Below are positions 7,547 to 46,122 of a stretch of 64,000 bases of DNA, piece by piece. Source of the DNA: a virus. The notes under the pieces are model-generated. The model saw only the letters and a program-made list of their open reading frames with translations. It did not search any database and was not told the origin of the DNA. The position numbers and the translations under genes are program-made. The stretch's first letter is position 1; each line of letters starts with the position of its first letter. The stretch lies in the IMG/VR virus record IMGVR_UViG_3300034109_001012; one strand, given 5' to 3'.

Positions 7547-10500
7547 ATGTATCTAAAACTAGACATCCCTGAATTAAATCTAAATGTTAAACAGTCAGGG
7601 GCTTTTGGTTTGTCGCTAGGGAATCCAAATGGATTAAGTAAAGAAATATTAATTAAAGATGGTGTCTCTATTGTAGAAATAACTCCTACTGTCAACCCTG
7701 TCCTGATTATTCCCACACCTCAAAGCCAGAAGATTGTCTCGCTTGTTATTAATAATAAAATTTACCAATTATCAGAATCAGTAGAAGCAGAACAACTCGC
7801 ACCGGATGAATTTATTTATAATCCCTATGCTCAACAGGTAGCGATCGCTCAATATTCAGATCCAAAATATATTCAAGTCACTTCACCTACCAATCCCGTA
7901 ACCGTATCAATCCCAGGCTACAGCACCGCCACGAATGTTTATATCGGTGGGACTAGCCAGAATGCTGTTAGCTACACGGTCAAACCGCACGGAACACTTA
8001 TTGGAGATTTAGAACAAGGGCAAGCGGTTTACAACCCCGCATCCAATGAATTAATTTTTATTCCCGTTCAGTCTTTAGCCAAAACCATCACTACAGCCCC
8101 CCAAATTTTAGCTGTACAGATATCGGGAGTTAAGATAACAACACCTACTACCCCGATCAAGGTATCGGTTGTTAACAATACATCTAATATTGATTACGAC
8201 ACCGACTATATAGATAAGTTGCCAACGGTTTTACAATGGTTACCTTTGTTGGGTAACTTCAATTATTCGACATCCTTAGAACAATCTCAAAACGGAGAGA
8301 TGCGGTTCGAGACTTGGTTTAGTTATAAAAATTTAGTTTTGAAACATTTATGTCGGGGGGCAAAGTTTGAGGCATTCGGGATTGGGTGGCGAGTCGATGG
8401 ATTACAGATTAATGAAAAGATGAGATCAGAATTATCTCATCCAAAAATAGAGGTTTCAATTTCTCTGACCGATCCCCATTGGTGGCTCGATACAGAAGTC
8501 CCGCTGGTTCCCAGAAAGTACAAGGACGATCCATTGGGCGGATTGTCCCCTATTCTCTATTCTGGGGATTGGAAGATTTCTTATCACTATTCAGCAAGTA
8601 GTCCAGGGGTTGACCCTGAATGTTTAACCAACAGCCCATCACAACCCAAAGCCACATTAGCTGAATCGAGGACTTTAACATGGCTTTGCGGTCAAGCGGG
8701 GGGGATGTTATCAGGAATGGAAGGGGAAATACCAGTACCAAATGATGTGAGTCCAGAGGAAGGAAGGATACCCCGTAGTGAAATTCAATCAAGATTAAGA
8801 CAGAATAATTGTTTTTTGGATTTATCGGACTCTGATACTGTCTATTGCAAAAAATGGAACTCAACCAAGCAATGGCTATTACAAGAAACTGATATTTTAT
8901 CACCAATTTCTGTCAGTTGCTCCACTGGTAAGCAACGAAAACTTACACCTAACTCCGCATTCCAACAAGAAATTATTGTCGGGTTGCCAAACAATATCAC
9001 ACCCAAACAGACCATTACCTTAAAGAATGAGGATGTGACCAATATTTATGGAGCTTCTTATATATGGCCGAAGCAAGAAGTCACTGGAGAATTTCTTGAA
9101 AAGTCTCAGGAACAGGTAGAGGAAAACCAAGGGAATAGAGCGCCCACACTGCCAGAATACCGAATGAGACAGCGTAAGTATGAACAAAGGACAGAAGACC
9201 CCGACATCGCAAATACACCGCCCGATTCAGTTGATATCAATGATTTGTCGGTATCTTTTTGGAAGTCTGGGCAAAACTACGTCAAGGTTAAACGAGAGAT
9301 TAAAACTATTGATGGTTTTGAGTTTCAAGTTACCGAACAAAAATACGCTTTTAACGGGCCGTTAGCTAAAGATATTTATGAATATAGTCAAGGGGTTTGG
9401 AAGTTAAAGAAAGCTGATGTTAGAAGTTTTTGGGGATTGATAGAGGAAACCACAACTCAACACTTCTATAGCTCTGGATTCAGTGCCTACGAAGGGCTTT
9501 ATTTGGGATACGAAAAAAGTGGGTGGCGGTTTCATGTTTTCGCTACGGAACCAGAAATTAATATTTCGGATTCAGAAGCCGACCCAACGCTGCAATACCC
9601 TACACTCTCATCTCAACAGCAATACATAGACAAGGGGAGCGGAGCCACAAACGCAGACCTTCAGACTAAAGACCTAGCGAACAAAGCCTACACGCCCCAA
9701 CGCGTCCCTATTTTTGAGAAGGAAAAATATTACCATGAGCCGATGGAAAAATACTATAAAGACGCGGCGGTTCAGACTGTTGACGAGGTTAAATGGTGTA
9801 TGCCCGACGGGACAAGTCGCAGGTTGGCAGCGATAGATAAGACCTTCCAACAGCCCTATATTGTCACCGCTAGGGAGAAGGTTGTCAGAGGTTTGTCTTC
9901 AATGGAAGATCCTCGAAATCCTACGATTAGAGAATTTAATCAAAAGCGACCAGATGGGCAAAAGGAAAAACCAGAATTTCCCCCTCTGACAACCGGGACG
10001 GAATCATCAGAATCCTACAAGGTAAAAATCAATCGGAGCGTCAACACCCCTGGATATAGGAACACTGATGATTCCGAAAAGGATACTTTCACGGCTTACA
10101 CTCGGTCAGCATCAACAGGGGGGAATGGGTCAGGTTTTGGTTCTCAAATCTCAGAAAATAGGGTAGACGAAGTTGAAGGTAGACCGGAATCATCGAGGCG
10201 GCTTCCCCCTATTTGGGAGCGGGTAGAGGAGGAAAACCCTACCGAAACAGAGGAAAAGCAAAACCAATCCGATCCCAAGCGATACCGCTATAAAGTGTGG
10301 ACACCCTTAGCACCGGACAAAACACCTTTTGACCAATTAGTGTCGGGGTCAATGAGTTTTCCTTATGCCAAAACATTATCAGAGGTTAGAACGGCAATTA
10401 AAACCAATCTGGATATAGAAAACGCTCGCAACAGTTACACAGAAGGCTTCACTACTTTTTTTAATCCTTCAATGCGTCCGGGCGATCAGCTGACCTATTT

Positions 10501-10798
10501 TGTTAATGGCGAAAGACGCAAGCGCAGGATTCTGTCTATATCTCCTAGCGTCGTTTTTCAAGGCAACCTGAATAACAAACCTTTTGCCACAGGGACGATG
10601 CAGTTAAGTGTGGGATGTCCGATTGAGGTCGATTTCATATTAGAGCAAGAATTAATCCCCAATAGCGCCACAGACAAGGATAAATTAGGTACGGGCTATC
10701 CTTTAGAGGTTTGGCTAGATCCTACGGGCGGAGCGCAGGGAGCTTTTGAAGTGGAAAATATCCCCTCCCGACTAACGCCCCCTTCTACTTTCTTGTAA
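7547..10798 (+). CDS. Large virion-associated protein (function unknown, possibly tail tip/host recognition)
   Basis: 1083-aa uninterrupted ORF followed by a hairpin terminator; convergent with tape measure gene. Confidence 0.5.
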   Translation: MYLKLDIPELNLNVKQSGAFGLSLGNPNGLSKEILIKDGVSIVEITPTVNPVLIIPTPQSQKIVSLVINNKIYQLSESVEAEQLAPDEFIYNPYAQQVAIAQYSDPKYIQVTSPTNPVTVSIPGYSTATNVYIGGTSQNAVSYTVKPHGTLIGDLEQGQAVYNPASNELIFIPVQSLAKTITTAPQILAVQISGVKITTPTTPIKVSVVNNTSNIDYDTDYIDKLPTVLQWLPLLGNFNYSTSLEQSQNGEMRFETWFSYKNLVLKHLCRGAKFEAFGIGWRVDGLQINEKMRSELSHPKIEVSISLTDPHWWLDTEVPLVPRKYKDDPLGGLSPILYSGDWKISYHYSASSPGVDPECLTNSPSQPKATLAESRTLTWLCGQAGGMLSGMEGEIPVPNDVSPEEGRIPRSEIQSRLRQNNCFLDLSDSDTVYCKKWNSTKQWLLQETDILSPISVSCSTGKQRKLTPNSAFQQEIIVGLPNNITPKQTITLKNEDVTNIYGASYIWPKQEVTGEFLEKSQEQVEENQGNRAPTLPEYRMRQRKYEQRTEDPDIANTPPDSVDINDLSVSFWKSGQNYVKVKREIKTIDGFEFQVTEQKYAFNGPLAKDIYEYSQGVWKLKKADVRSFWGLIEETTTQHFYSSGFSAYEGLYLGYEKSGWRFHVFATEPEINISDSEADPTLQYPTLSSQQQYIDKGSGATNADLQTKDLANKAYTPQRVPIFEKEKYYHEPMEKYYKDAAVQTVDEVKWCMPDGTSRRLAAIDKTFQQPYIVTAREKVVRGLSSMEDPRNPTIREFNQKRPDGQKEKPEFPPLTTGTESSESYKVKINRSVNTPGYRNTDDSEKDTFTAYTRSASTGGNGSGFGSQISENRVDEVEGRPESSRRLPPIWERVEEENPTETEEKQNQSDPKRYRYKVWTPLAPDKTPFDQLVSGSMSFPYAKTLSEVRTAIKTNLDIENARNSYTEGFTTFFNPSMRPGDQLTYFVNGERRKRRILSISPSVVFQGNLNNKPFATGTMQLSVGCPIEVDFILEQELIPNSATDKDKLGTGYPLEVWLDPTGGAQGAFEVENIPSRLTPPSTFL

Positions 10799-10820
10799 GA
10801 TGTTTTTAAAATGGTTACTA

Positions 10821-10853
10821 CCCCTGGGTGTTCACGCACCGCGAGGGGTTTTG
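10821..10853 (+). terminator. Hairpin plus T-run between convergent genes
   Basis: CCCCTGGGTG..CACCGCGAGGGG followed by TTTTG. Confidence 0.5.
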
Positions 10854-10918
10854 TTATTATTAATTATATCATTTTTTATTAAGTTGTAGTACAGAGCATA
10901 CAATTTAATAAAAACAAT

Positions 10919-13900
10919 TTACATCCGTCTCTTAGTCTCAATCATAATATTATCAAAAGCTTTTAATATTTCCTGCTCTAAATTTTTACCAACATCACCT
11001 GGGGATGTAACTGTTATTTTTACCCCCCCCACTTCCATCTTGACGTTGTTCTCTACGTTCTGAGCAGTTTGCTGAAACCGAGTGTACTCCGTCTGTCCAA
11101 TACTAAGACTTGGTGCGGAAGGTGTCCCCATCTGTAAGTCAGGAGAAACGGGGTCACTTAGTGCTTGTATTTTTTTGAATATCTCATCAAGGCGATCTGT
11201 TGGAACGTTTAACCCTTGAACTTCGGGCGGTTTTCCATAGTCAATATAAACAGAACCAGAGCGCCCTCTCATTGTCTCCTGATCTTTTCCATTAATTAAT
11301 CTGTTTAATTCCGATTGATCGCCCCGTTGGATTTGATCTAGGACGCTAGTATAGTTCCAGTCCGTGACCTTCTTACCGTAAACATCACTCAAGGCTTCGT
11401 TGATAATCTGTTGCTTTAATTGTGCCTGTTGTCTTCCCTCTGGCAGTGTGTTGGCTAGTTCAGACTTAGCTTGCATCCGGTCTAGCTTTTGCCTTTGGTC
11501 TAAATTCCTAATTTCCTGCTCTTGGGAAAAATCTAATAATTGAGACTGCAATGGTAAAAGCGATGCTTGCAAAGCTAATCCTTGTCCCGCCATTAACTTC
11601 GCCTCAAGATTCATTTGACCCGCAGCGATTTCTTCTGGTGTAGCTCCCGACGCTTCAAGTTTAGCTAAATCAGCTTGAGCCTGCGCTACCTCGGCTTTGT
11701 TTTGAGCCTGTTGCCCTTTTAATTTAAGAGCATCAATCTGTCCCTGAACTTTAGCTTGCTGTTGATTAAGAAGCAAAACCTCTCGCTCGGCTTTCTGTTG
11801 CTGATCTAACGCCTTTAATTTAATAGTGGCAGTTGATTGAGCCAGTACCTGTCTTTGTTTCTCATTGACGATCAACTGAGAAGCCAAACCCATTTCAGAG
11901 GTAACTATACCTAACCTGTCACTAAACGCCCGTTGTCTAGCTTCAAGTAACTGCTTTTGAAACCCAATAATTGTATTCTGTTTCTCTAAGGCAGAAGTCT
12001 GTTTATCGTATCCCTGTTGGATTTGTTGCTGACTTAAAACAAACGACTTGGTAACTTTATCAATCTGTTCTTGTATCAGTTTTTGCTTGGCTAATTTCTT
12101 TTCAATTTTGGCATTCTCTGATTCAATCTGTTGAGTTAGATTAACTCGTTTTTGCTCATTCTTATTTATTTCTCCCTGTTGGTTTACTTGTTGATTCGTT
12201 AAGTTTAGTTGTTGAGTAAGTGCTTCTGTACGTTGTTTATTGCCTTGAATCTGAAGTTTAATTGCCTCAATTTCTTCGGGTGATCTCTTTTGTTTAGTTG
12301 CCCTTTCTAGTTCAAATTTTAAGATTTGAGCCTGAGATTCTGCCTCAAGTTCTTGTAATTCAATTTGAGAAACTTGACGTTTTAAATCCAAATCCAGAAG
12401 TTTTTGACGGGTAGCCAAACTTTCTAATTCAGCTTTTTGAGTACGGACTAAATCAACTTCCCTTTCTTTAATTACTCTTAGTTCAACCTCAGCTTGTTTT
12501 AAAGGGTCGCGGGTTAACTTAGCTTGGTTCTGTAGCTGTGATTGCACATAACGCGATTCAGTATCAGCTAATTGATTCCTGCTACTGGTAATATTTTCTG
12601 TAAGTTGCGCTTGTTTTTGGAGTAAATCATACTCAGATTCTAAAGCCTGTTTTCTTAGATCCGCCCGTTGATTCTCATTCTCAAGTTGTTTTCTCTGGGT
12701 TTCAAAATCTAAATCTTTTAATCGGTTTTTTTCCTTGGCTTCAGCTTCTCTGATTTGGTTTCTAGTTTGTGCGTATTCATTCTCTAATTCAACATTTTTA
12801 ACCCCATTGGCTTTGAATTGATTAAGTTGTCTCTTTAATTCATTGGCTCTTAGTTTAAATTCTTTAATCTGTAAATCCGCCACCTTTGCTTGTGCATCTT
12901 CCTCTGATAAACCCCGTTCAGCTACCTGTGCAGAAATCAAGGTTTTCTCGGTATTCAACGCTTGAAGTTTTTGTTCTAATTGTTTCTGGATTAGCTTTTC
13001 CCGTGCGTTAAATTCAGCTTGTGCAATCTCAAGGTTTATCTGTTTAAGTTGATTCTCAAGGTCGATAACTTTGATTCCATATTGTAGACGAAGTTCAAGT
13101 TCTGACTCTAGTTGTTTCTTCTGTAAACCTAATTTTTCCTGTTGCAGTCCAGAGGTTCTTTTGATAACATCTTCCTCGGACGCTCGACGGAGTTGCCCTG
13201 CGGTTACTGTGGCAGAGGATTCTAACTCTATTTGGGAGATCCTTTCTGCCGTCGCTTGAGAGTTAAATTGGGCGATTTGACTGATTAGATTTTTCTGGGT
13301 GTCAATATCAAAGATAGAACCCTTAATCTGTCTTCCGTCTTTAGTTAAGGTAATGAATGATTCGTCCAAAACACTCTTAACTTTGTTGGCGACGTCACGA
13401 CTTTTTAATAAATTCCGGTCATAGTTTTGGAGGATTTGATCTAGTACCGCTTGCCCTTCAGTTCTTTGCTGTTGAACATCTTTTAAGAATACTTTACCCT
13501 CGTCAATATATTTTTCTTTAAACACTGAGAAGGCATCATCTAAAGCGTTATTACCCTCTAATGGGTTAACAGATGAAGCTACCACCGCCTGCTGTAATAC
13601 TGGTAGAGTCTCATTATAATATTTGGTGATTTGTTCCCTAGCTTGTTTTAACGCCTCTGTGCGTTTTTGAAGGTTATCTATTTGAGCTTGAGCAGCATCA
13701 AATTGATCGTTTAATTGTTGTTTTAATCCTGTATCTGTAGTCTCATCAAGTAGTTTTTGCCGTTCTTTTTGTTGGGATTGATAGCCCGATATTAAGAGTT
13801 CGTTGGCTTTGATTAAGTCGTTAGTTTCCTTATTCTCTTTTTCCAGAACAATGCCTTGAACTTGTGATCCTTTCAATGCTAATTTTCTGGCTTCTTCTGT

Positions 13901-16900
13901 TTGAAATAAACCAGCGTTAAGCTCTTTAGTCTGCTTAATTGTCTGAATTGTATTGTCACCAACATCTTTTAAAGTCTCATTCCTTAGTTTGGATTGCATT
14001 TTGATTAGGCGATCGCCTTCTCTGTTGGCGTTTGCTTCTGCAACAGTTGTTATACCTTTCTGTGGGTTGTAAAGGGTAGTCATAACCGCAGCGTTGAGAT
14101 TCCCTATAAAATTAGTAAACCGCCCCAAACCCTCTAGTGAGAAAATTTCCCCAATCCGATCCCCAATCCCTTTCTCAATTTCACCCGGTGCGCCTGCTCT
14201 AAAAGCCTCAATCTGATTTTGAAGTATTGATAATTCCTGAGCGGTGATTTTTCCATCTTCCCCGGCTTTCCGCATGGCTTTGGACATAGCTGTGAACTGT
14301 CCAGAGGTAAGATTGCCAGCTTCTTTTAATTCGTTTAATTTGTTTTTGAGGGGATCGAGTGCGTCCGCGTTTCCGGTGTTGGATTCCGATAGTGCAACTA
14401 AATTGGCTTTGAATGCCAACAAAGCCCCGTCCTTTCCAGATTCCTTCTCTAGTGCCTTGAGAGCTTTGGTCGTCTCATCAATGCCCTTACTGATAGCATT
14501 GGCTGTACCAAAACCAAATATATGAGCAATTTCTTTTCCTGCAAATACAAACGCCGCACCAATAGCCAACCCAATTGGAACAATAGGGCCAAGTGCCGTT
14601 AACGCTGCACCAGCTAACTCTGTTATTAATTCAAATCCTTCTTTAGCCCCTGCGTATACCGCCTTACCTGTTTTTTCCCCGACAAAACCAAGGGCTTGCC
14701 AGACTGTTAACCTCTCGTTTATTCCCGATAATCTTCTAGCCTCAGCAGCCCGTCTAGCGTCCCCTATACTCGCACCCCCGCGTCTTCTAGCCCGTTCCCT
14801 TAATTCGTCTCTAGTTGGCTTGCGTGGATCGTCAACTTCTGGATTGGATGCCATGAAGTCGCCAAAAGTTCCAACAGGTACCAGAGGCACCAGAGGCACC
14901 GGTCTTGGGATACCCGACACTTCTTGTTGATTTACCCGATCTGGTAATTGTTCAGGAAGACCAATTAATGATCGAAAACCTTTTTCTGCTTTAACTCCCG
15001 CAGATTCAACAGCCGCTCCTACACTTCCAAAAAATCCATCTAACGCCTTTTTAAATTCACTGGTCTGGCTGGAGACAGAGGTAACTAATTGGCGAGGAAG
15101 ATCCTTGAGTGATTCAAAAGTTTGCTTACTTTTTTTAGTTAAAATCTCCAGGGAATAAAAGCCAGCGTTTGAAATGGACGCTTGAAAAGATTTTATCTTA
15201 CTGGGTAAGCCTTGTAGACTTTCTGATACTTGTCCAAAACCAGTTTTTAAAGCGCCAAAAATAGATGTAAAAGTATTGACACTGATTATCTGTTTTAAGG
15301 TTTTAAATTGATTCGAGACTGCTGTTGTGGTTCGAGTTGATGCAGCCAAAAACTTAGCTTGAGCTTTTTCTATCAATGTAAAATCAGCAACATTGGCACT
15401 TCTTAAATTGCTGAAATAATCTTTTTGTTGTTCGGCAAATGACCTCCGCGATCTCACTATCTCGGATGATGATCCCAATCTTCTGTTAACTCCATCGGCG
15501 TTAGCACTTCTTAGATTTTCTAAATCTATAGGACTTGCTGTTTGCCGACCTCTGGCTAAATCAAAAATATTTTTCTGCTGAACAATTGTTTGCGACTGTT
15601 GGGCTTTTTTGAATCCAGGTATTTTATTGGCAATCAAATCTTTAAGGTTGCCAATGTAATTTTTTGTTTGTTTATTGAGATCGTTAAATAATTCTTTCTG
15701 TTTACCAAAAACAGCTGTTATCCCTTCAAATCCTTTGCTTAATTTATTCCCAATATTTAGATTTGAGAATATCCCGGCAAACTTAATTAATCCAGACTGA
15801 AGCCCAACAAAAGCTAGTTTAGCCTTATCCCCTAAAGCAGTAAATGACGCAGTGACTTTATTGATTGTAGACTGAAGAAATCCAAACCGACTAGACGCTT
15901 GAGATGCGGCTTCTCCTGATCCTAGTAGTGCGCGAGCTTGTTTCTGCTGTGATAAACTAAAGTCATCAACAGCAGCACTTTTGAGATTATTAAAATATTC
16001 TTCTTCCCTACCTTTAAAAGTTTTCTGAACTCTCGTTATCTCAGATGATGTTGGTAAAGACTTGATAGTTACATCGCCAGTGGCACTCTTAAGATTGTCG
16101 AGATATTTACTTTTTGCTATTTTGCTATTCTGTTGAATCTTTTCAATCTGACCAACTACTTCAGGCTGAACGCTTTGTGCTTTTCCTCTATCCTGAGCAT
16201 TCTGCCAGAAGTTTTTAAACCCTTCTACAGCTTTATCTTTTAATGTGAGAATATATAGCTTTAATCTCTGTATTAATCCTAGTAGTATTTCCTTCTGAGA
16301 ATTAAAGACACTGTTTAAATTCTCGAATCCTTTTGTTAAATTTATAGACTTAATAGTTTTACTGAGTTCTAAGATCCTTCCCCTGATACCAGTAACAGTT
16401 TTACCTATTCTGTCCCCAACTAAAGCAAATGTTGAACCAATCCCCAACGTAACAGACTGTAAAAGACCAGTCTTCTTGACACTATCCCCAACTAGACTTT
16501 GTGACTCGTAGAATTCTTTAGTTCGTGCCAATGCGCTTGTCTTATTGCCCAAGACGGCTAATTGTCCGCCTTTTGTTTCTCGTTCTTGGATTTTTTTCTT
16601 TCTGGCTTCCCTGCGTCTATCTAGTTCCGTTAATAGTTCCCATTGTCGCTCCTCTTTCTGAACCTCGATGTCAACTTCTGGTATTCGCTTAAAAGTATCT
16701 GGAGCGCTTGGTTTGTTCAGGGAATCTCGAAGTTTTTTCTCAAGTTCAGCCCGTTTTAGTTTTGGATCAATCCCTGGAGTCTCTATAGGACTATCTGGGA
16801 CGCTTGGGATGTTTTTCTCAAGTTCAGCCCGTCGCCTTGCTGCATAAGCCTCTACCTGTTGATCCATTTCCAAAGGTTGAGAACCCTTCACTTTATCTAC

Positions 16901-39924: not shown

Positions 39925-39944
39925 CCCTCTAAATATTTAGAGGG
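39925..39944. terminator. Perfect 20-bp palindrome CCCTCTAAATATTTAGAGGG, copy 1
   Basis: Directly after the 39329..39913 stop; A-run upstream, so T-run on the minus strand. Confidence 0.45.
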
Positions 39945-39974: not shown

Positions 39975-40415
39975 ATGACTACACCAACGGATAGATACGC
40001 ATCCGCACTAAAAGAACTCTCCTCACTCCTTGGGGGTCAAATAGCCTATCACTTTCCTGATTATCAGGCAATATTAGATAACGTGCAGCCACGGGGTACA
40101 AGAGCCCTTTTTAGACAGCAAACTCGTTTAATGGCTGTTGTAGAAGGGGTTGCCATTATAAAGATCGGTAACTCTGCTATAAAAGAACTAGCCTCTACTC
40201 ATCGCCATTCAAACGCATTGACTGAAGCGTTTAAGTCTTATTATGGTGGCGAGGGCATGAGCCTTGTTTTTATTTGTGACGACGACATTATAAAACCACC
40301 GCCACCGCCAAGAGACAAGAATGGACAGGCAAGTATTTTTGACATCCTGGAAAGTGAGTATTTTAAGAGTTCACCAAAAGGAGGCATTCTTACCAATCCC
40401 AAGCCAACTAAATAA
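39975..40415 (+). CDS. Hypothetical protein
   Basis: 146-aa ORF with a PPPPP segment. Confidence 0.45.
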   Translation: MTTPTDRYASALKELSSLLGGQIAYHFPDYQAILDNVQPRGTRALFRQQTRLMAVVEGVAIIKIGNSAIKELASTHRHSNALTEAFKSYYGGEGMSLVFICDDDIIKPPPPPRDKNGQASIFDILESEYFKSSPKGGILTNPKPTK

Positions 40416-40420
40416 AAATA

Positions 40421-40442
40421 CCCCTCTAAATATTTAGAGGGG
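40421..40442. terminator. Palindrome CCCCTCTAAATATTTAGAGGGG, copy 2 (between convergent units)
   Basis: Same core as 39925..39944; on the minus strand it is followed by TATTTTTATTT. Confidence 0.5.
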
Positions 40443-40480
40443 TTAAACCTAAATAAACACAAATTAAAACTTGCGAAGTT

Positions 40481-40558
40481 TTAACTTAATTTGTTGGCGA
40501 GCATAACACCAACAATTCCGCATAGTAAACAAACCAACAGGGTTAAAAAATAAGTCAT
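40481..40558 (-). CDS. 25-aa hydrophobic peptide MTYFLTLLVCLLCGIVGVMLANKLS (not in ORF track)
   Basis: Preceded by the same AACAACACAAAGGTAGAGACATG initiation region as 40644..40847; single TM-like segment. Confidence 0.35.
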   Translation of the reverse strand: MTYFLTLLVCLLCGIVGVMLANKLS

Positions 40559-40596
40559 GTCTCTACCTTTGTGTTGTTGATATCCCTTTTCGGGAA

Positions 40597-40643
40597 TGCG
40601 ATCGCACGGAGTCGAACCGTGCTAGGAGCTAACCTGCGATCGC
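40597..40643 (-). ncRNA. tRNA-like minihelix (7-bp acceptor stem + T-arm, no D/anticodon arms), copy 2 in transcript order
   Basis: GCGAUCG-CAGGUUAGCUCCUAG-CACGG-UUCGACU-CCGUG-CGAUCGC-A; starts right after the 40644..40847 stop codon. Confidence 0.5.
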
Positions 40644-40847
40644 TCAAACATATTCTAGGATCGCCCCATCGGGGAAATCCGAATACATCTCAGCCTCCTT
40701 AGCGAAAGCTAGAAAATCCTTGTGTATAAATACGTCAGTACCATTAAAGGTACTCAGGACGTACCCAGCTTCTGCTAACTGGTTACGATAAGCCCCGACC
40801 GCCTTTTTGTAGTCGGCGCTAATTTTCAACCCCTTTGCTAGTGTCAT
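40644..40847 (-). CDS. Hypothetical 67-aa protein
   Basis: ORF flanked on both sides by the tRNA-like cassette. Confidence 0.45.
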   Translation of the reverse strand: MTLAKGLKISADYKKAVGAYRNQLAEAGYVLSTFNGTDVFIHKDFLAFAKEAEMYSDFPDGAILEYV

Positions 40848-40884
40848 GTCTCTACCTTTGTGTTGTTTAAATCCCTTTCGGGAA

Positions 40885-40927
40885 TGCGACCACTGGGAAT
40901 CGAACCCAGTCAGGGGCCTGCGGTCGC
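40885..40927 (-). ncRNA. tRNA-like minihelix, copy 1 in transcript order
   Basis: GCGACCG-CAGGCCCCUGA-CUGGG-UUCGAUU-CCCAG-UGGUCGC-A; 4 nt after the 40932..41735 stop. Confidence 0.5.
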
Positions 40928-40931
40928 TGTC

Positions 40932-41735
40932 TTAGTCAACAAGATCGCACTTTGCTGTCATCTTGTTTCCGCAGGGAAAATCCGCACAAACGGATTGATA
41001 TAGCGGGTTTTTAGTCCCAAAGGCTTTGGTCACGGTTCCCTGTCCATAGACAGGGTGATTGATAATGTCCCCGACTTTCAATAAACCCGTCGAGGGTTTA
41101 TTTAAATCCTCCAGGTATTTTTCAATAACCTTGATTGCTTCTGTGTAAAAATGCTCCCGTTGGGGAGTGTAGACCTTCTCCACTTTTTCGGTAGGCAAGT
41201 CTAAGACGGCCAAATCCGCCACAGTATATTCCGTGACTTCCCCATAGCCCGTTTCATAGGCGATGGTAGTGGCACTGGGAAACTTGGGTTTTCCCTCAAT
41301 AACTTCCCCAAATTGGTTCACGGCTTTAGTTGCCGTGTAGGTGACTAAAACCTCGTATTCATCAGCCACAAAATGGGCTTTGGGGCTAGGGGTTTCACCC
41401 CATTGAGAATTGCCTCCCCGCATCCCATCAGGGGATTCTTTGCGACGGGTGGGGCGGGCGGTTTTTTGGTAACTACCGTGTAGTTTTTCGCAGGAAACGG
41501 ATTCCTGTTTTTGTTCGTGGGTGACAACCCATTCTAGGGGTGTCACCTTAACTGAATTTGGTAACGGGGTGACGCTACCAATGGAGTCGCCGTCTTTCCA
41601 GACGTTTCCTCTGTTGTCAACGTGACATCCCTTTGTAGGGAGTTTTAGGGCATCACACCCCAAAACCGCATTCCATTTCCACTCAGGGGTTTTTGGAGCT
41701 TTGGCGGTTTTGGCGGTTTTGGTTGCGACTGTCAT
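40932..41735 (-). CDS. Hypothetical protein
   Basis: 267-aa ORF, first gene of the small minus-strand operon. Confidence 0.5.
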   Translation of the reverse strand: MTVATKTAKTAKAPKTPEWKWNAVLGCDALKLPTKGCHVDNRGNVWKDGDSIGSVTPLPNSVKVTPLEWVVTHEQKQESVSCEKLHGSYQKTARPTRRKESPDGMRGGNSQWGETPSPKAHFVADEYEVLVTYTATKAVNQFGEVIEGKPKFPSATTIAYETGYGEVTEYTVADLAVLDLPTEKVEKVYTPQREHFYTEAIKVIEKYLEDLNKPSTGLLKVGDIINHPVYGQGTVTKAFGTKNPLYQSVCADFPCGNKMTAKCDLVD

Positions 41736-41793
41736 GGCGTTATGTCCTCTGTGCGTTTACAAATTCTATAATATACGCATACTTTAGAAATTG

Positions 41794-42003
41794 TCAACCT
41801 TTTTTTAAAAAAATTTTATAAAAGGCTTGTAAGTCTTGTGGGGCAATCGCTCCACGGGATAGGCGTTCAACGAACTCACTCCTGGACACTCCCAAGAGCG
41901 CAGCTAATTTATCAAGCCGTTGCCACGCCGTGTCGGTCAAACTCAGATTGTGAGGCTTTTTCTTTTCCCCATAGTCGGGGACTCTGTTTATATAGTCGCG
42001 CAT
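41794..42003 (-). CDS. Ribbon-helix-helix (CopG/Arc-like) DNA-binding protein
   Basis: LSLTDTAWQRLDKLAALLGVSRSEFVERLSRG beta-alpha-alpha pattern; divergent from the nblA promoter region. Confidence 0.55.
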   Translation of the reverse strand: MRDYINRVPDYGEKKKPHNLSLTDTAWQRLDKLAALLGVSRSEFVERLSRGAIAPQDLQAFYKIFLKKG

Positions 42004-42090
42004 TGTGCCATCTCCTGCTGTATTTATATATTTCTATACTATACGCATTGGCAAATTAAATCCATTATCAGGAGCAATTGGCAACAGGTA

Positions 42091-42111
42091 AATCAAAAAA
42101 ATATTTTGATT
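42091..42111. promoter_or_regulatory. Operator-like inverted repeat AATCAAAA-N5-TTTTGATT
   Basis: 8-bp arms, seen directly. Confidence 0.45.
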
Positions 42112-42132
42112 CTGTATTAAAGAGATATAAAA

Positions 42133-42155
42133 ATCAAAATATTTTTTGATATAAT
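42133..42155 (+). promoter_or_regulatory. Second inverted repeat ATCAAAA-N4-TTTTGAT overlapping extended -10 TGATATAAT (nblA-tmk promoter)
   Basis: TG-A-TATAAT at 42147-42155, about 30 nt upstream of the nblA ATG. Confidence 0.5.
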
Positions 42156-42185
42156 CTATGTGTTGATATTCTTATAACAACGGAA

Positions 42186-42350
42186 ATGGAACCAACACAG
42201 CTAACAATGGAGCAAGAATTTAAACTTGCGACAATTAAACGTAATGTGGATATATTGACATTGGAGGAAGCTAGAGAATATATAATTGAATTAATAAGGC
42301 AAGGTATGATTAAAGATGATTTGATTAAAAATTGGATGAGGATGAAATGA
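42186..42350 (+). CDS. nblA: Phycobilisome degradation protein NblA (54 aa, not in ORF track)
   Basis: MEPTQLTMEQEFKLATIKRNVDILTLEEAREYIIELIRQGM matches the NblA pattern LSLEQqF.....v..ms.eqA.e.lv.l..Qm; ATGA overlap with tmk. Confidence 0.65.
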   Translation: MEPTQLTMEQEFKLATIKRNVDILTLEEAREYIIELIRQGMIKDDLIKNWMRMK

Positions 42351-42943
42351 GTAAATTGATTGCTTTTGAAGGGATTGACCGCAGTGGGAAAACAACCCAA
42401 ATTAGAAAACTTTGCGACCATTTCACGGCGTTAAAGTTAAAGTTCTACATCACAAGAGAACCCTGTGATTATGACGTTCGGTTTGAATTAAAGAATGGGC
42501 TTTTGACACCGGAGCAGCAGCTTAAATTAATCCTGAAGGATAGGATTAAACACAATCCCACGATTAAATATTTGTTAGAAGATTCTGATTTGGTATTGTG
42601 CGATCGATACACGGATTCAACTCTTGCTTATCAGGGGTATGGGCACGGGCTTAATTTAGATAATTTAAGGAAGCTAAATCACGAGGCGACGGGGGGAATT
42701 GATCCCGATATGGTGATTTTGTTCGATTGTCCTGTTGAGGTGGCGGTGCGCCGCGATCTCGACAAACCTCTGGACAAGGTTGAAAGAGACTTACTTTTTT
42801 TAGATCGGGTTCGGTTTGGATATCTTGAATTGGCGAGGGAGAATAACTGGATTGTGATTAACGCAACGCAAACAACTACGCGAATGTTTCAGGAAATATC
42901 TGGCATTCTGATGGGGATTATTCCTGTCCCTGTGATTAGATAA
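42347..42943 (+). CDS. tmk: Thymidylate (dTMP) kinase
   Basis: P-loop IAFEGIDRSGKTTQ, DRYTDSTLAYQGYG motif; start taken at MSKLIAFEG (track start 42332). Confidence 0.9.
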   Translation: MSKLIAFEGIDRSGKTTQIRKLCDHFTALKLKFYITREPCDYDVRFELKNGLLTPEQQLKLILKDRIKHNPTIKYLLEDSDLVLCDRYTDSTLAYQGYGHGLNLDNLRKLNHEATGGIDPDMVILFDCPVEVAVRRDLDKPLDKVERDLLFLDRVRFGYLELARENNWIVINATQTTTRMFQEISGILMGIIPVPVIR

Positions 42944-44743: not shown

Positions 44744-45880
44744 TTATTCGTCATCTGGGAGCAATACTGGTAAAGATGGTCGGTGGATCACGCTCCCGGC
44801 GTAATTATTGTAAATAGTTTCAATCCTATTCCCTGCGAGTTCCGCCATTTCAGCAGGGCTTTTCCCTTGTGATAACCCGTGAGAAATTAGAGTATGGCGA
44901 CAGTTCCCGGGCTTTCTATATTCCACACCAACCTTAGCTAAAACCTGTTTCCAAGCCCGATTCCTGAAGTTGTGGGAATCAATTGGCAATCCAGTCAAGG
45001 AGACGAAAACCGGAGCCTCCGGGTCGGGGTCAATCGGACGGATTGCTTTGAGAATATTTTGAAGGCGAGGGGGAAGTGGAATTAAGCGATCGCGATTAGT
45101 TTTAGTCGATTTCCTTTGACCGGATACCGTTAATTTGCAGCTAATTAAAACCTCGTTACAGTCTTCTGATATATGTTTCCACTGTAGCCCGTTTGCTTCC
45201 CCCTGTCGACAACCTGTACCCAGTAAAAACTCAACATAAGGGAGAAAATGGGAATAATATTGATCTGTTGCAAACCCTTCTAAAATCCGTTTAATTTCCT
45301 CAATCGAGAAAGGTTTTAATCTTCTTTTTGGGGGAACTTTTACCGACACTTCAGTCCAGGGATTATTCTCAACTAATTGACGCTTAATCCCCCACTGATA
45401 AGCCGCGTTCAAGAATACAATCCTCTCCCTAACTGTGGCGGGTTCGTTGTGTTGTAGCAGCCAATCACGAAAGCCAAAAGCGGATTTTTCGGTTAAATTA
45501 TTGTTACCAAAATATTCTCGGATTCTAGGCAAGAAATGATTGTATTTATAAAGCGTTTCTGATTCAATCTGTTGTTGCTTGTAATTCAAATACCGTTCAA
45601 CTAATCCGACAACTGAAACCGTCGCCTGTTTAACTTCCATTTCTGATTGTGGCTTGTACTTGGTTAGGGAACTATCAAAGTTTCCCGTGGCGCAGTCCCC
45701 TTGAATCTGCAAAGCCAACCGTTGTGCCACCATCTGATTTAGGGGGTTATCCTCCAATCCTAAGCTCAAAAAATATCTTTTGCCCTGGTGACTCCAAACC
45801 AGCCGGAGCCACCCCACCCCCGCAGAACTGATGGTAGTTTTGACCTGTACGCTTCCCTTGGGTGCTTTCTTCTGAGTCAC
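44744..45880 (-). CDS. int: Tyrosine recombinase / phage integrase
   Basis: Box I GTGCRQGEANGLQW, box II CRHTLISHGL, C-terminal IETIYNNYAG (Tyr nucleophile region); GTG start. Confidence 0.9.
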   Translation of the reverse strand: MTQKKAPKGSVQVKTTISSAGVGWLRLVWSHQGKRYFLSLGLEDNPLNQMVAQRLALQIQGDCATGNFDSSLTKYKPQSEMEVKQATVSVVGLVERYLNYKQQQIESETLYKYNHFLPRIREYFGNNNLTEKSAFGFRDWLLQHNEPATVRERIVFLNAAYQWGIKRQLVENNPWTEVSVKVPPKRRLKPFSIEEIKRILEGFATDQYYSHFLPYVEFLLGTGCRQGEANGLQWKHISEDCNEVLISCKLTVSGQRKSTKTNRDRLIPLPPRLQNILKAIRPIDPDPEAPVFVSLTGLPIDSHNFRNRAWKQVLAKVGVEYRKPGNCRHTLISHGLSQGKSPAEMAELAGNRIETIYNNYAGSVIHRPSLPVLLPDDE

Positions 45881-46001: not shown

Positions 46002-46047
46002 TCGGAGCGACAGGATTTGAACCTGCGACCCCTACCACCCCAAGGTA
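46002..46047 (-). other. 3' 46 nt of tRNA-Pro(GGG): half anticodon stem, loop UUGGGGU, variable loop, T-arm, acceptor 3' strand. Putative attP core
   Basis: Minus strand TACCTTGGGGTGGTAGGGGTCGCAGGTTCAAATCCTGTCGCTCCGA; no D-arm or 5' acceptor upstream. Confidence 0.65.
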
Positions 46048-46122
46048 TATTCAATGTAGTCAAACCCTTTTATCGCGGGGTTTTTGGGTGTTTGGGTACT
46101 TGAGATCCCAATTGTTGATCAA

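Follow-up and report, generated by a model that had tools for sequence, protein, structure and literature searches.

tRNA-like half-elements between the genes of a PaV-LD-like cyanophage operon: an RNA fold kept by compensatory change and its possible cleavage by host tRNA-processing enzymes

Why should a phage keep two copies of what looks like half a transfer RNA (tRNA) between the protein-coding genes of one short operon? The question is raised by a stretch of viral DNA of 64,000 nucleotides (nt) (IMG/VR record IMGVR_UViG_3300034109_001012), which is called the window here in its full length, and in which two such elements, A and B, lie on the minus strand. The window is a relative of Planktothrix phage PaV-LD, with which the surrounding region shares 91% identity over 40588-42934. 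On the available evidence, selection acts on the elements to keep an RNA fold shaped like the acceptor/T-arm half of a tRNA. Tentatively, and with a probability of roughly 0.45, we regard them as substrates of the host ribonucleases RNase P and RNase Z and of the CCA-adding enzyme, which would punctuate the operon.

Analysis of the minus strand at 40300-41200, together with a scan for promoters and terminators, gave a three-cistron operon with open reading frames (ORFs) of 267, 67 and 25 amino acids (aa), and the elements lie between these ORFs. Cassette A reads, on the minus strand, from the TAA stop codon (40934-40932) through gaca, GCGACCG, caggcccctga, CTGGG, TTCGATT, CCCAG and TGGTCGC to A (40885), followed by TTCCCGAAAGGGA (40884-40872), tttaAACAACACAAAGGTAGAGAC and ATG (40847-40845). 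Cassette B reads from TGA (40646-40644) through GCGATCG, caggttagctcctag, CACGG, TTCGACT, CCGTG and CGATCGC to A (40597), followed by TTCCCGAAAAGGGA (40596-40583), tatcAACAACACAAAGGTAGAGAC and ATG (40558-40556). The parts of the two cassettes are as follows.

40885-40927, minus strand: tRNA-like core of element A; 60.2 bits with covariance model R1, and the minimum-energy fold is the tRNA-like fold
40927-40921, minus strand: 5' acceptor strand of element A, GCGACCG, from the sequence
40920-40910, minus strand: short hairpin of element A, from the sequence
40909-40893, minus strand: T-arm of element A, CTGGG-TTCGATT-CCCAG, from the sequence
40892-40886, minus strand: 3' acceptor strand of element A, TGGTCGC, followed by the discriminator A at 40885
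40872-40884, minus strand: UUCCC-GAAA-GGGA hairpin with a GNRA tetraloop, its stem beginning 1-2 nt past the discriminator A of element A
40845-40871, minus strand: A/C-rich leader of the 67-aa gene with its Shine-Dalgarno region and ATG, UUUAAACAACACAAAGGUAGAGACAUG, predicted to be unpaired
40597-40643, minus strand: tRNA-like core of element B; 76.5 bits with covariance model R1
40643-40637, minus strand: 5' acceptor strand of element B, GCGATCG, a HIP1 site
40636-40622, minus strand: hairpin of element B, from the sequence
40621-40605, minus strand: T-arm of element B, CACGG-TTCGACT-CCGTG, from the sequence
40604-40598, minus strand: 3' acceptor strand of element B, CGATCGC, a HIP1 site, followed by the discriminator A at 40597
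40583-40596, minus strand: UUCCC-GAAAA-GGGA hairpin 3' of element B, its loop with one extra A
40556-40582, minus strand: leader of the 25-aa ORF with its Shine-Dalgarno region and ATG, equal to cassette A over the last 23 nt

Both minus-strand cassettes were thus recovered with the parts that the original prediction had described for them, and with their identical initiation region. The cores measure 43 nt in element A and 47 nt in element B. The T stem is contiguous with the 3' acceptor strand, giving 12 base pairs (bp) in total as in tRNA, and the segment between the acceptor and T stems is merely 11-15 nt long. The two T-arms, GGTTCGATTCC and GGTTCGACTCC, both fit GGTTCRANYCC, and exact matches to GGTTCGAYTCC in the window are confined to the two element sites. 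The 20-nt leader occurs exactly twice in the window, compared with 0 occurrences expected, and the sequence of the UCCC-GAAA-GGGA hairpin is invariant among those relatives that have the common form. A start 0-4 nt after a stop codon, as first described, holds in the window; among relatives the offset varies from 0 to ~50 nt.

The evidence for a selected fold comes from 19 distinct cores, namely window A and B and 17 homologous cores. Paired cells amount to 94.0%, compared with 28-44% when the 3' partners are slid, and the covariation score of 0.313 (0.153 +/- 0.016 in shuffled data) was reached by 0 of 500 column shuffles. Double-sided changes are found at five pairs, two of them in the acceptor stem (G-C/G.U/A-U, with the wobble intermediate present, and U-A/U.G/C-G) and three in the T stem (G-C/A-U, A-U/U-A/C-G and C-G/G-C), and RNAalifold, run unguided, returned the same three helices. 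The compensatory differences between A and B from which the original prediction started are real and are extended by the 17 further distinct cores, and its claim of selection on RNA structure is upheld by the 94% pairing, the five double-changed pairs and the RNAalifold helices. Its total of 12 bp also stands; the division into a 7-bp acceptor stem and a 5-bp T-stem does not. The last nt of the variable segment and the first nt of the 3' acceptor strand form GC in 10 cores and AU in 9, with none unpaired, and the seventh acceptor pair as first drawn is GU in 9, GC in 8 and unpaired in 2. Given the perfect covariation of the extra pair on the T side and the weak seventh acceptor pair, the stack is better drawn as 6 bp + 6 bp, or as a branch-migrating junction, the fit being slightly better than with 7+5.

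A sense-strand RNA is favoured over a DNA cruciform because of the kinds of one-sided change, the conserved T-loop and the constant orientation of the elements. One-sided changes leave G.U on the sense strand at seven positions and A/C in two cases, of which one affects the terminal pair and the other belongs to a truncated copy; the bias is suggestive and not significant. The T-loop sequence is kept in 18 of the 19 cores, as UUCGAYU or UUCAAUU, and in all ~30 instances, which comprise ~8 upstream and ~10 downstream gene contexts, the orientation is that of the flanking ORFs. In one group of related loci (L024) the element is 89% identical, compared with 77% for the neighbouring coding sequence. 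The context is constrained as well: of 29 contexts, 27 have A at position -1 and 28 have A as the discriminator, U stands at +74 in every one, and none encodes CCA. One divergent relative (L175C) carries a 7-bp hairpin of unrelated sequence, AGCAAGG...CCUUGCU, at the same +2 offset from the discriminator.

The elements belong to one phage lineage. Exact-pattern scans of IMG/VR and of JGI metagenomes gave ~30 instances with the 19 distinct cores, in PaV-LD-like contigs, so that the recurrence in other cyanophage contigs for which the original prediction had proposed a search was indeed found. An initial IMG/VR scan with a 14-mer was too unspecific, its matches being mostly chance; three more specific scans and one metagenome scan returned PaV-LD-like contigs only, plus unrelated true tRNAs. 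PaV-LD was the sole match among 50,697 phage records, and a plasmid collection contained no match to the element. An exact-pattern scan (T-loop/T-arm plus 3' acceptor to TTCCCGAA) over one genome for each of 185,579 prokaryotic species produced nothing beyond a single chance match, in a Planctomycetota metagenome-assembled genome, without tRNA-like context. With filters off, covariance model R1, which was built from the cores, found 2 copies in the 64-kilobase (kb) window and 2 in the whole PaV-LD genome. Based on these phage-record, plasmid and species-genome scans and on the copy counts from the covariance model, the element is specific to this lineage of phages, where a genome has 1-3 copies, and is not a host repeat.

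Several known classes of sequence or RNA were considered and set aside. As in tRNA genes, an acceptor stem stands on a T stem with a 7-nt loop of the UUCRANY type and a discriminator base. ARAGORN found 0 tRNA genes in the window and in the related locus L001, and the Rfam tRNA model scored 17.2 bits against a gathering score of 29, in agreement with the first description of the elements as something other than tRNA genes. Transfer-messenger RNA (tmRNA) was rejected: ARAGORN reported none, there is no tag ORF, and pair 3:70 is G-C in 17 of 19 cores, with G.U in 1 and A-U in 1. Nothing in Rfam 15 reached the gathering score at this locus or at four related loci. The best tRNA-type Rfam match of both copies was RF01684 (mascRNA-menRNA), at 23.8 and 22.6 bits, and membership of that family was rejected, both scores being far below the threshold of 42.5. 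A plus-strand match to the Plastid-ycf2 5' untranslated region (27.2 bits compared with 65.7) is probably the antisense of the tRNA-like shape.

The palindrome HIP1 (GCGATCGC) occurs 21 times in the window, compared with 0.25 times expected from shuffles, a host-type enrichment that the phage shares. The B-type acceptor stem consists of two HIP1 copies, a likeness to HIP1 repeats; unlike the elements, HIP1 alone has no T-arm. A HIP1 repeat devoid of structure was rejected, because HIP1 supplies the B-type stem, yet stems outside HIP1 are still paired, namely GCGACCG/TGGTCGC in A-type cores, GCAATCG/TGATTGC in L169 and GCGATAG/CGGTCGT in L175C. The possibility raised with the original prediction, that the elements might be a HIP1 repeat lacking conserved pairing, is answered by these stems and by the T stem, all of which keep their pairing. 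An integron attC site was likewise rejected: on inspection, the 3' border has no GTTRRRY, an ATTTAAC-like string stands solely downstream of the hairpin, in the wrong order, and the only integrase is of phage type and is encoded ~4 kb from the elements. An intrinsic terminator or attenuator was rejected too, the terminator scan giving none at the elements and no U-run following the structure. Mimicry of an anticodon by the short hairpin was dismissed, since its loop is of 6 nt (4 nt in window copy A, through a 4-nt deletion) and not of 7 nt.

The operon in which the elements stand is delimited by these features.

41768-41797, minus strand: sigma-70-like promoter, TTGACA, a 16-18 nt spacer and TATATT/TATTAT, with 11 of 12 consensus positions, identified by consensus match only
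40932-41735, minus strand: first cistron, 267 aa, homologous to PaV-LD ORF024R, with 4 nt between its TAA stop and element A
40644-40847, minus strand: second cistron, 67 aa, homologous to PaV-LD ORF025R, with a TGA stop that directly adjoins element B
40481-40558, minus strand: third cistron, the 25-aa hydrophobic ORF MTYFLTLLVCLLCGIVGVMLANKLS, found in the relative L174 and not in PaV-LD
40420-40443, minus strand: intrinsic terminator closing the operon, with a T-run after the perfect palindrome ACCCCTCTAAATATTTAGAGGGGT

The leader of the first gene, aaacgcacagaggacataacgccATG (41766-41740), resembles the leaders found 3' of both elements and has no element itself. The PaV-LD counterparts of the operon genes are ORF023R-025R, all annotated as hypothetical, and the 267-, 67-, 25-, 181- and 93-aa proteins gave no informative Pfam or PHROG match. 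The 25-aa ORF MTYFLTLLVCLLCGIVGVMLANKLS is strongly hydrophobic and has a full leader and ribosome-binding site (RBS), and may encode a small membrane peptide. A perfect 20-nt palindrome, CCCTCTAAATATTTAGAGGG, followed by a T-run, is found twice, at 39925-39944 and 40422-40441, flanking a plus-strand ORF (39975-40415). In the relative L175 the homologous plus-strand ORF is placed between element B and a single copy of the terminator; based on this arrangement, ORF 39975-40415 behaves as a cassette bounded by bidirectional terminators.

How might a phage use such elements? RNase P, RNase Z and the CCA-adding enzyme all act on minihelices built from an acceptor stem and a T-arm, and cyanobacterial tRNA genes mostly do not encode CCA. 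A 5'-terminal hairpin protects a bacterial mRNA only when very few nt precede it. The 12-bp coaxial stack capped by a T-loop, together with the discriminator and a trailer without CCA, is what these three enzymes recognise, and the element has few parts beyond these. In substrates of RNase P the D-loop is dispensable, and a T-loop-like structure is needed (PMC4919913). No enzyme for tRNA processing is listed in the annotation of PaV-LD, and the enzymes would hence be those of the host. In the proposed mechanism, the whole operon would be transcribed as one RNA from the promoter at 41797-41768. Host RNase P would cut between A(-1) and G(+1), just past the upstream stop codon, and host RNase Z past the discriminator A (A73), before UU. 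The cistrons would then be separated, and a minihelix RNA of ~43-47 nt, able to receive CCA, would be released. The downstream mRNA would start 1-2 nt before the GNRA hairpin, in such a way that the U(U)-hairpin could shield the new 5' end. If RNase Z acted alone, the upstream mRNA would instead end in a stable tRNA-like cap. We infer these cleavage steps, and any effect on mRNA stability or expression, from the anatomy of the elements. Being repeated between different genes, the module at the same time offers a patch of homology at which gene cassettes are swapped or lost.

The closest functional analogues are the t-elements of plant mitochondria, the mascRNA/MEN-beta modules, mitochondrial tRNA punctuation and co-transcripts of the secG-leuU type. 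t-elements combine the GGTTCRANYCC T-arm motif with an acceptor-like stem and adjoin coding regions; their borders coincide with the 5' and 3' ends of mRNAs made by RNase Z and RNase P, and an excised t-element carries non-templated C/A (PMC1920247, citing Hanic-Joyce et al. 1990 for the mRNA ends). Both phage copies have the sequence trait of this class, GGTTCRANYCC in a non-canonical tRNA-like fold inside an mRNA, and the mechanism known there is the one proposed here. The t-elements differ in being organellar and unrelated in sequence, most of them with a degenerate cloverleaf. In the phage elements, the D and anticodon arms are replaced by one hairpin of 11-15 nt, the element is repeated between cistrons, and a hairpin at a fixed offset and an RBS follow. 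The phage element might be described as a t-element of phages, distinctive in its minimal architecture and coupled to a 5' hairpin.

The mascRNA and MEN-beta modules (MALAT1 and NEAT1; RF01684) are likewise tRNA-like, stand at the 3' end of long transcripts, are cut by RNase P and RNase Z and receive a CCA tail; unlike the phage elements they are vertebrate and nuclear, form a cloverleaf with an anticodon-like arm and have no homology to them. In murine gammaherpesvirus 68, the TMER transcripts carry a tRNA-like module and then hairpins, which are released by tRNase Z; they are made by polymerase III, and their hairpins are those of microRNA precursors. The TMERs share with the phage elements a viral tRNA-like module directly before a hairpin, with an RNase Z cut between the two that is proposed in the phage, and differ in that they belong to a eukaryotic virus. 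In mitochondrial tRNA punctuation and in bacterial co-transcripts of mRNA and tRNA, of which secG-leuU is one (PMC2241853), cistrons are parted when RNase P together with RNase Z (or RNase E) acts on a tRNA structure within the transcript. Those structures are functional tRNAs, whereas the phage structure, having no anticodon arm, cannot decode. The tRNA-like domains of tmRNA and of Y RNA (YrlA; PMC4201824) also consist of an acceptor stem and a T-arm with no anticodon arm, and are substrates of tRNA enzymes; the phage elements have no Rfam match to either at E<=10, lack a long Ro-binding stem and do not conserve G3.U70. The literature and Rfam 15 yielded no non-decoding tRNA-like elements between phage or bacterial cistrons, which is absence of evidence only, and the literature searches gave no paper on tRNA-like elements in the operons of PaV-LD or of any other cyanophage.

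A number of observations weigh against cleavage by tRNA enzymes. The elements have no D-loop and hence no full tRNA elbow. The acceptor strand begins 0-8 nt past the stop codon, so close that terminating ribosomes would unwind it, and a cut by RNase P would leave the 3' end of the upstream mRNA unprotected. The thermodynamic support is modest: the cassettes and cores of the window have z-scores of -2.1 to -3.0, relatives in longer context have -0.5 to -1.5, and in B-type cores an extended HIP1 helix is more stable than the tRNA-like fold by ~1.9 kcal/mol. With a mean column identity of 86%, the family is shallow as well as narrow, and the independent compensatory events are consequently few, ~6-7; the strand bias of one-sided changes, as stated above, does not reach significance. 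L175C is a weak member, with a score of 34 bits and a fold in context that is not tRNA-like. Dispensability counts on the same side. Among 22 loci with a complete homologue of the 267-aa gene, 16 have the element and 6 have none; L108 is without copy B, and in L167, L179, L125 and L170 copy B has collapsed to one GCGATCGCA. In PaV-LD itself, the first pair of copy A is an A1/C72 mismatch. Copy B (15096-15142; L001 4010-4056) has its loop exactly inverted by a small hairpin flip, CACGG-AGTCGAA-CCGTG compared with CACGG-TTCGACT-CCGTG; it is truncated and folds as a long hairpin, with the T-loop consensus destroyed.

A role at the level of DNA, or a recombination junction that arises as a side-effect, must be considered alongside the RNA role. 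According to one such explanation, which we consider unlikely as an account of the elements, they are a DNA-level or selfish tRNA-derived repeat whose short homology (HIP1, ATTCCCGAAAGGGA and the leader) drives the gain, loss and swap of cassettes, and the fold is inherited from a tRNA ancestor and unused. When the window is compared with 35 related loci, all collinearity breakpoints in this operon fall at 40588-40643 or 40861-40942, in or at the elements. Breakpoints at gene boundaries are expected in any phage mosaic, however, and are no argument against an RNA role. PaV-LD ORF026R is inserted between 17-nt direct repeats, CGATCGCATTCCCGAAA, of the 3' end of the element; L128 has a B-type core at the site of the window's A-type core; and stem, loop and T-stem types are found in shuffled combinations across cores. 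Since HIP1 is palindromic, the two strands of a B-type stem are also direct repeats, and it is between such repeats that the core has been deleted in L167, L179, L125 and L170. The elements are, moreover, optional.

The leaders point in the same direction. The leader and RBS after both elements are identical within a genome (AACAACACAAAGGTAGAGACATGAC in the window, 40556-40582 compared with 40845-40871) and differ between genomes, and those of L192 (94-170 compared with 369-460) match likewise, AAACAACGCACAGAGGA... Their uniformity within a genome, while A-type and B-type cores stay distinct, suggests gene conversion of the leaders. What a DNA-level repeat leaves unaccounted for is the pattern of change in the cores. 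An unconstrained tRNA remnant should not gain compensatory changes, whereas five pairs are double-changed here and G.U is biased to the sense strand; the T-loop is kept in 18 of 19 cores, the orientation is always sense, and the element is more conserved than the adjacent coding DNA. The DNA-level and RNA roles can coexist.

The structure might also serve in the mRNA uncleaved, as a barrier to 3'-to-5' exonucleases in the manner of repetitive extragenic palindromic sequences, or as a translation insulator, with the tRNA enzymes uninvolved; we rate this as quite improbable. The element stands directly 3' of ORFs, and in operons that end with copy B the core is intact although the hairpin, the leader and the ORF have been lost, which counts in favour of the cleavage reading as well. 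Four independent junctions of this kind lie 0, 0, 8 and 9 nt past the discriminator (L189/L175, L191, L089/L110 and PaV-LD), from which it follows that the core travels with the upstream gene or alone, and the hairpin and leader with the downstream gene. In L189 and L175 the element takes the place of the terminator region, and related phages without elements use overlapping coupling, the cistrons overlapping by ATGA in 4 of the 6 element-less loci. A stable hairpin would suffice for such a barrier, however, and this would leave unexplained why the UUCGAYU loop is conserved, why the acceptor and T stems have their 12-bp geometry, why A is the discriminator and also stands at -1, with U at +74, and why the offset of the hairpin is fixed.

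In a further alternative, with little probability in our estimation, the product is the excised, CCA-tailed minihelix of ~45 nt, a 'half-tRNA' that acts in trans, and the operon is merely its vehicle. It could be a decoy for anti-phage enzymes or toxins that hit tRNA acceptor ends, or a sponge for tRNA-processing or tRNA-modification enzymes. This would agree with the 2-3 copies that a genome has in an accessory region, where genes for toxin-antitoxin, methyltransferase and nblA are close by, with the conservation of structure rather than sequence, and with the persistence of cores where no downstream gene needs release. The acceptor sequence, on the other hand, drifts freely and mimics no particular tRNA, many relatives have no elements, and a literature search found no precedent. 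The elements are finally rejected as phage attachment (att) sites or tRNA gene fragments left by integration, an origin that is very improbable: the phage does encode an integrase, and integrases often target T-arm or acceptor sequences, but a separate tRNA-Pro(UGG)-like fragment beside the integrase gene is the expected att core, the minihelices have a covarying 5' strand, are multicopy and lie 3.9-4.1 kb from that gene, and the exact 3'-half pattern (T-loop to TTCCCGAA) has one chance match alone in the genomes of 185,579 species.

That fragment, accTTGGGGtggtagGGGTCGCAGGTTCAAATCCTGTCGCTCCGA (46003-46050, minus strand), extends from the anticodon loop to the discriminator, without the 5' acceptor strand. 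It lies ~125 nt upstream of an ORF for a 378-aa integrase homologue (44744-45880, minus strand), and PaV-LD shows the same arrangement, with its fragment at 10262 and its integrase gene at 10405-11538, as do many related contigs. The fragment is the probable attP core, and this points to a host tRNA-Pro gene as the site of integration. A 9-mer, TCGCAGGTT, is common to the 5' part of the minihelices (GA/CC-TCGCAGGTT / CCGCAGG; 40628-40636 / 40916-40924) and the T-arm region of the att fragment (46019-46027, minus strand). Within 64 kb the odds of such a match by chance are about even, and it may mean nothing; it could hint at the origin of the element.

Elsewhere in the window, a HEARO RNA (Rfam RF02033, 126.9 bits) at 49453-49238 on the minus strand is directly followed by a 428-aa ORF with an HNH motif (49202-47916). 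Such a pairing is the IscB/omega-RNA (OMEGA) arrangement of IS200/IS605-type elements, here carried in a cyanophage genome.

The case of elements A and B is well defined and somewhat surprising, in a narrow lineage in which the element is dispensable. If they remain uncleaved, they would still be a clean case of a tRNA-derived intergenic repeat maintained by compensatory evolution. If they are cleaved by the enzymes with which the host trims its tRNAs, a bacteriophage would be punctuating a protein-coding operon with non-decoding tRNA mimics, a strategy otherwise known from mitochondria and from vertebrate long non-coding RNAs. The phage would then provide, in 43-47 nt and a further hairpin of 13 nt, a compact natural module by which cistrons in cyanobacteria can be parted and each given its own stability, which would be useful for synthetic operons. 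The same repeated RNA module would double as a recombination joint and drive the exchange of cassettes among bloom-associated Planktothrix phages.

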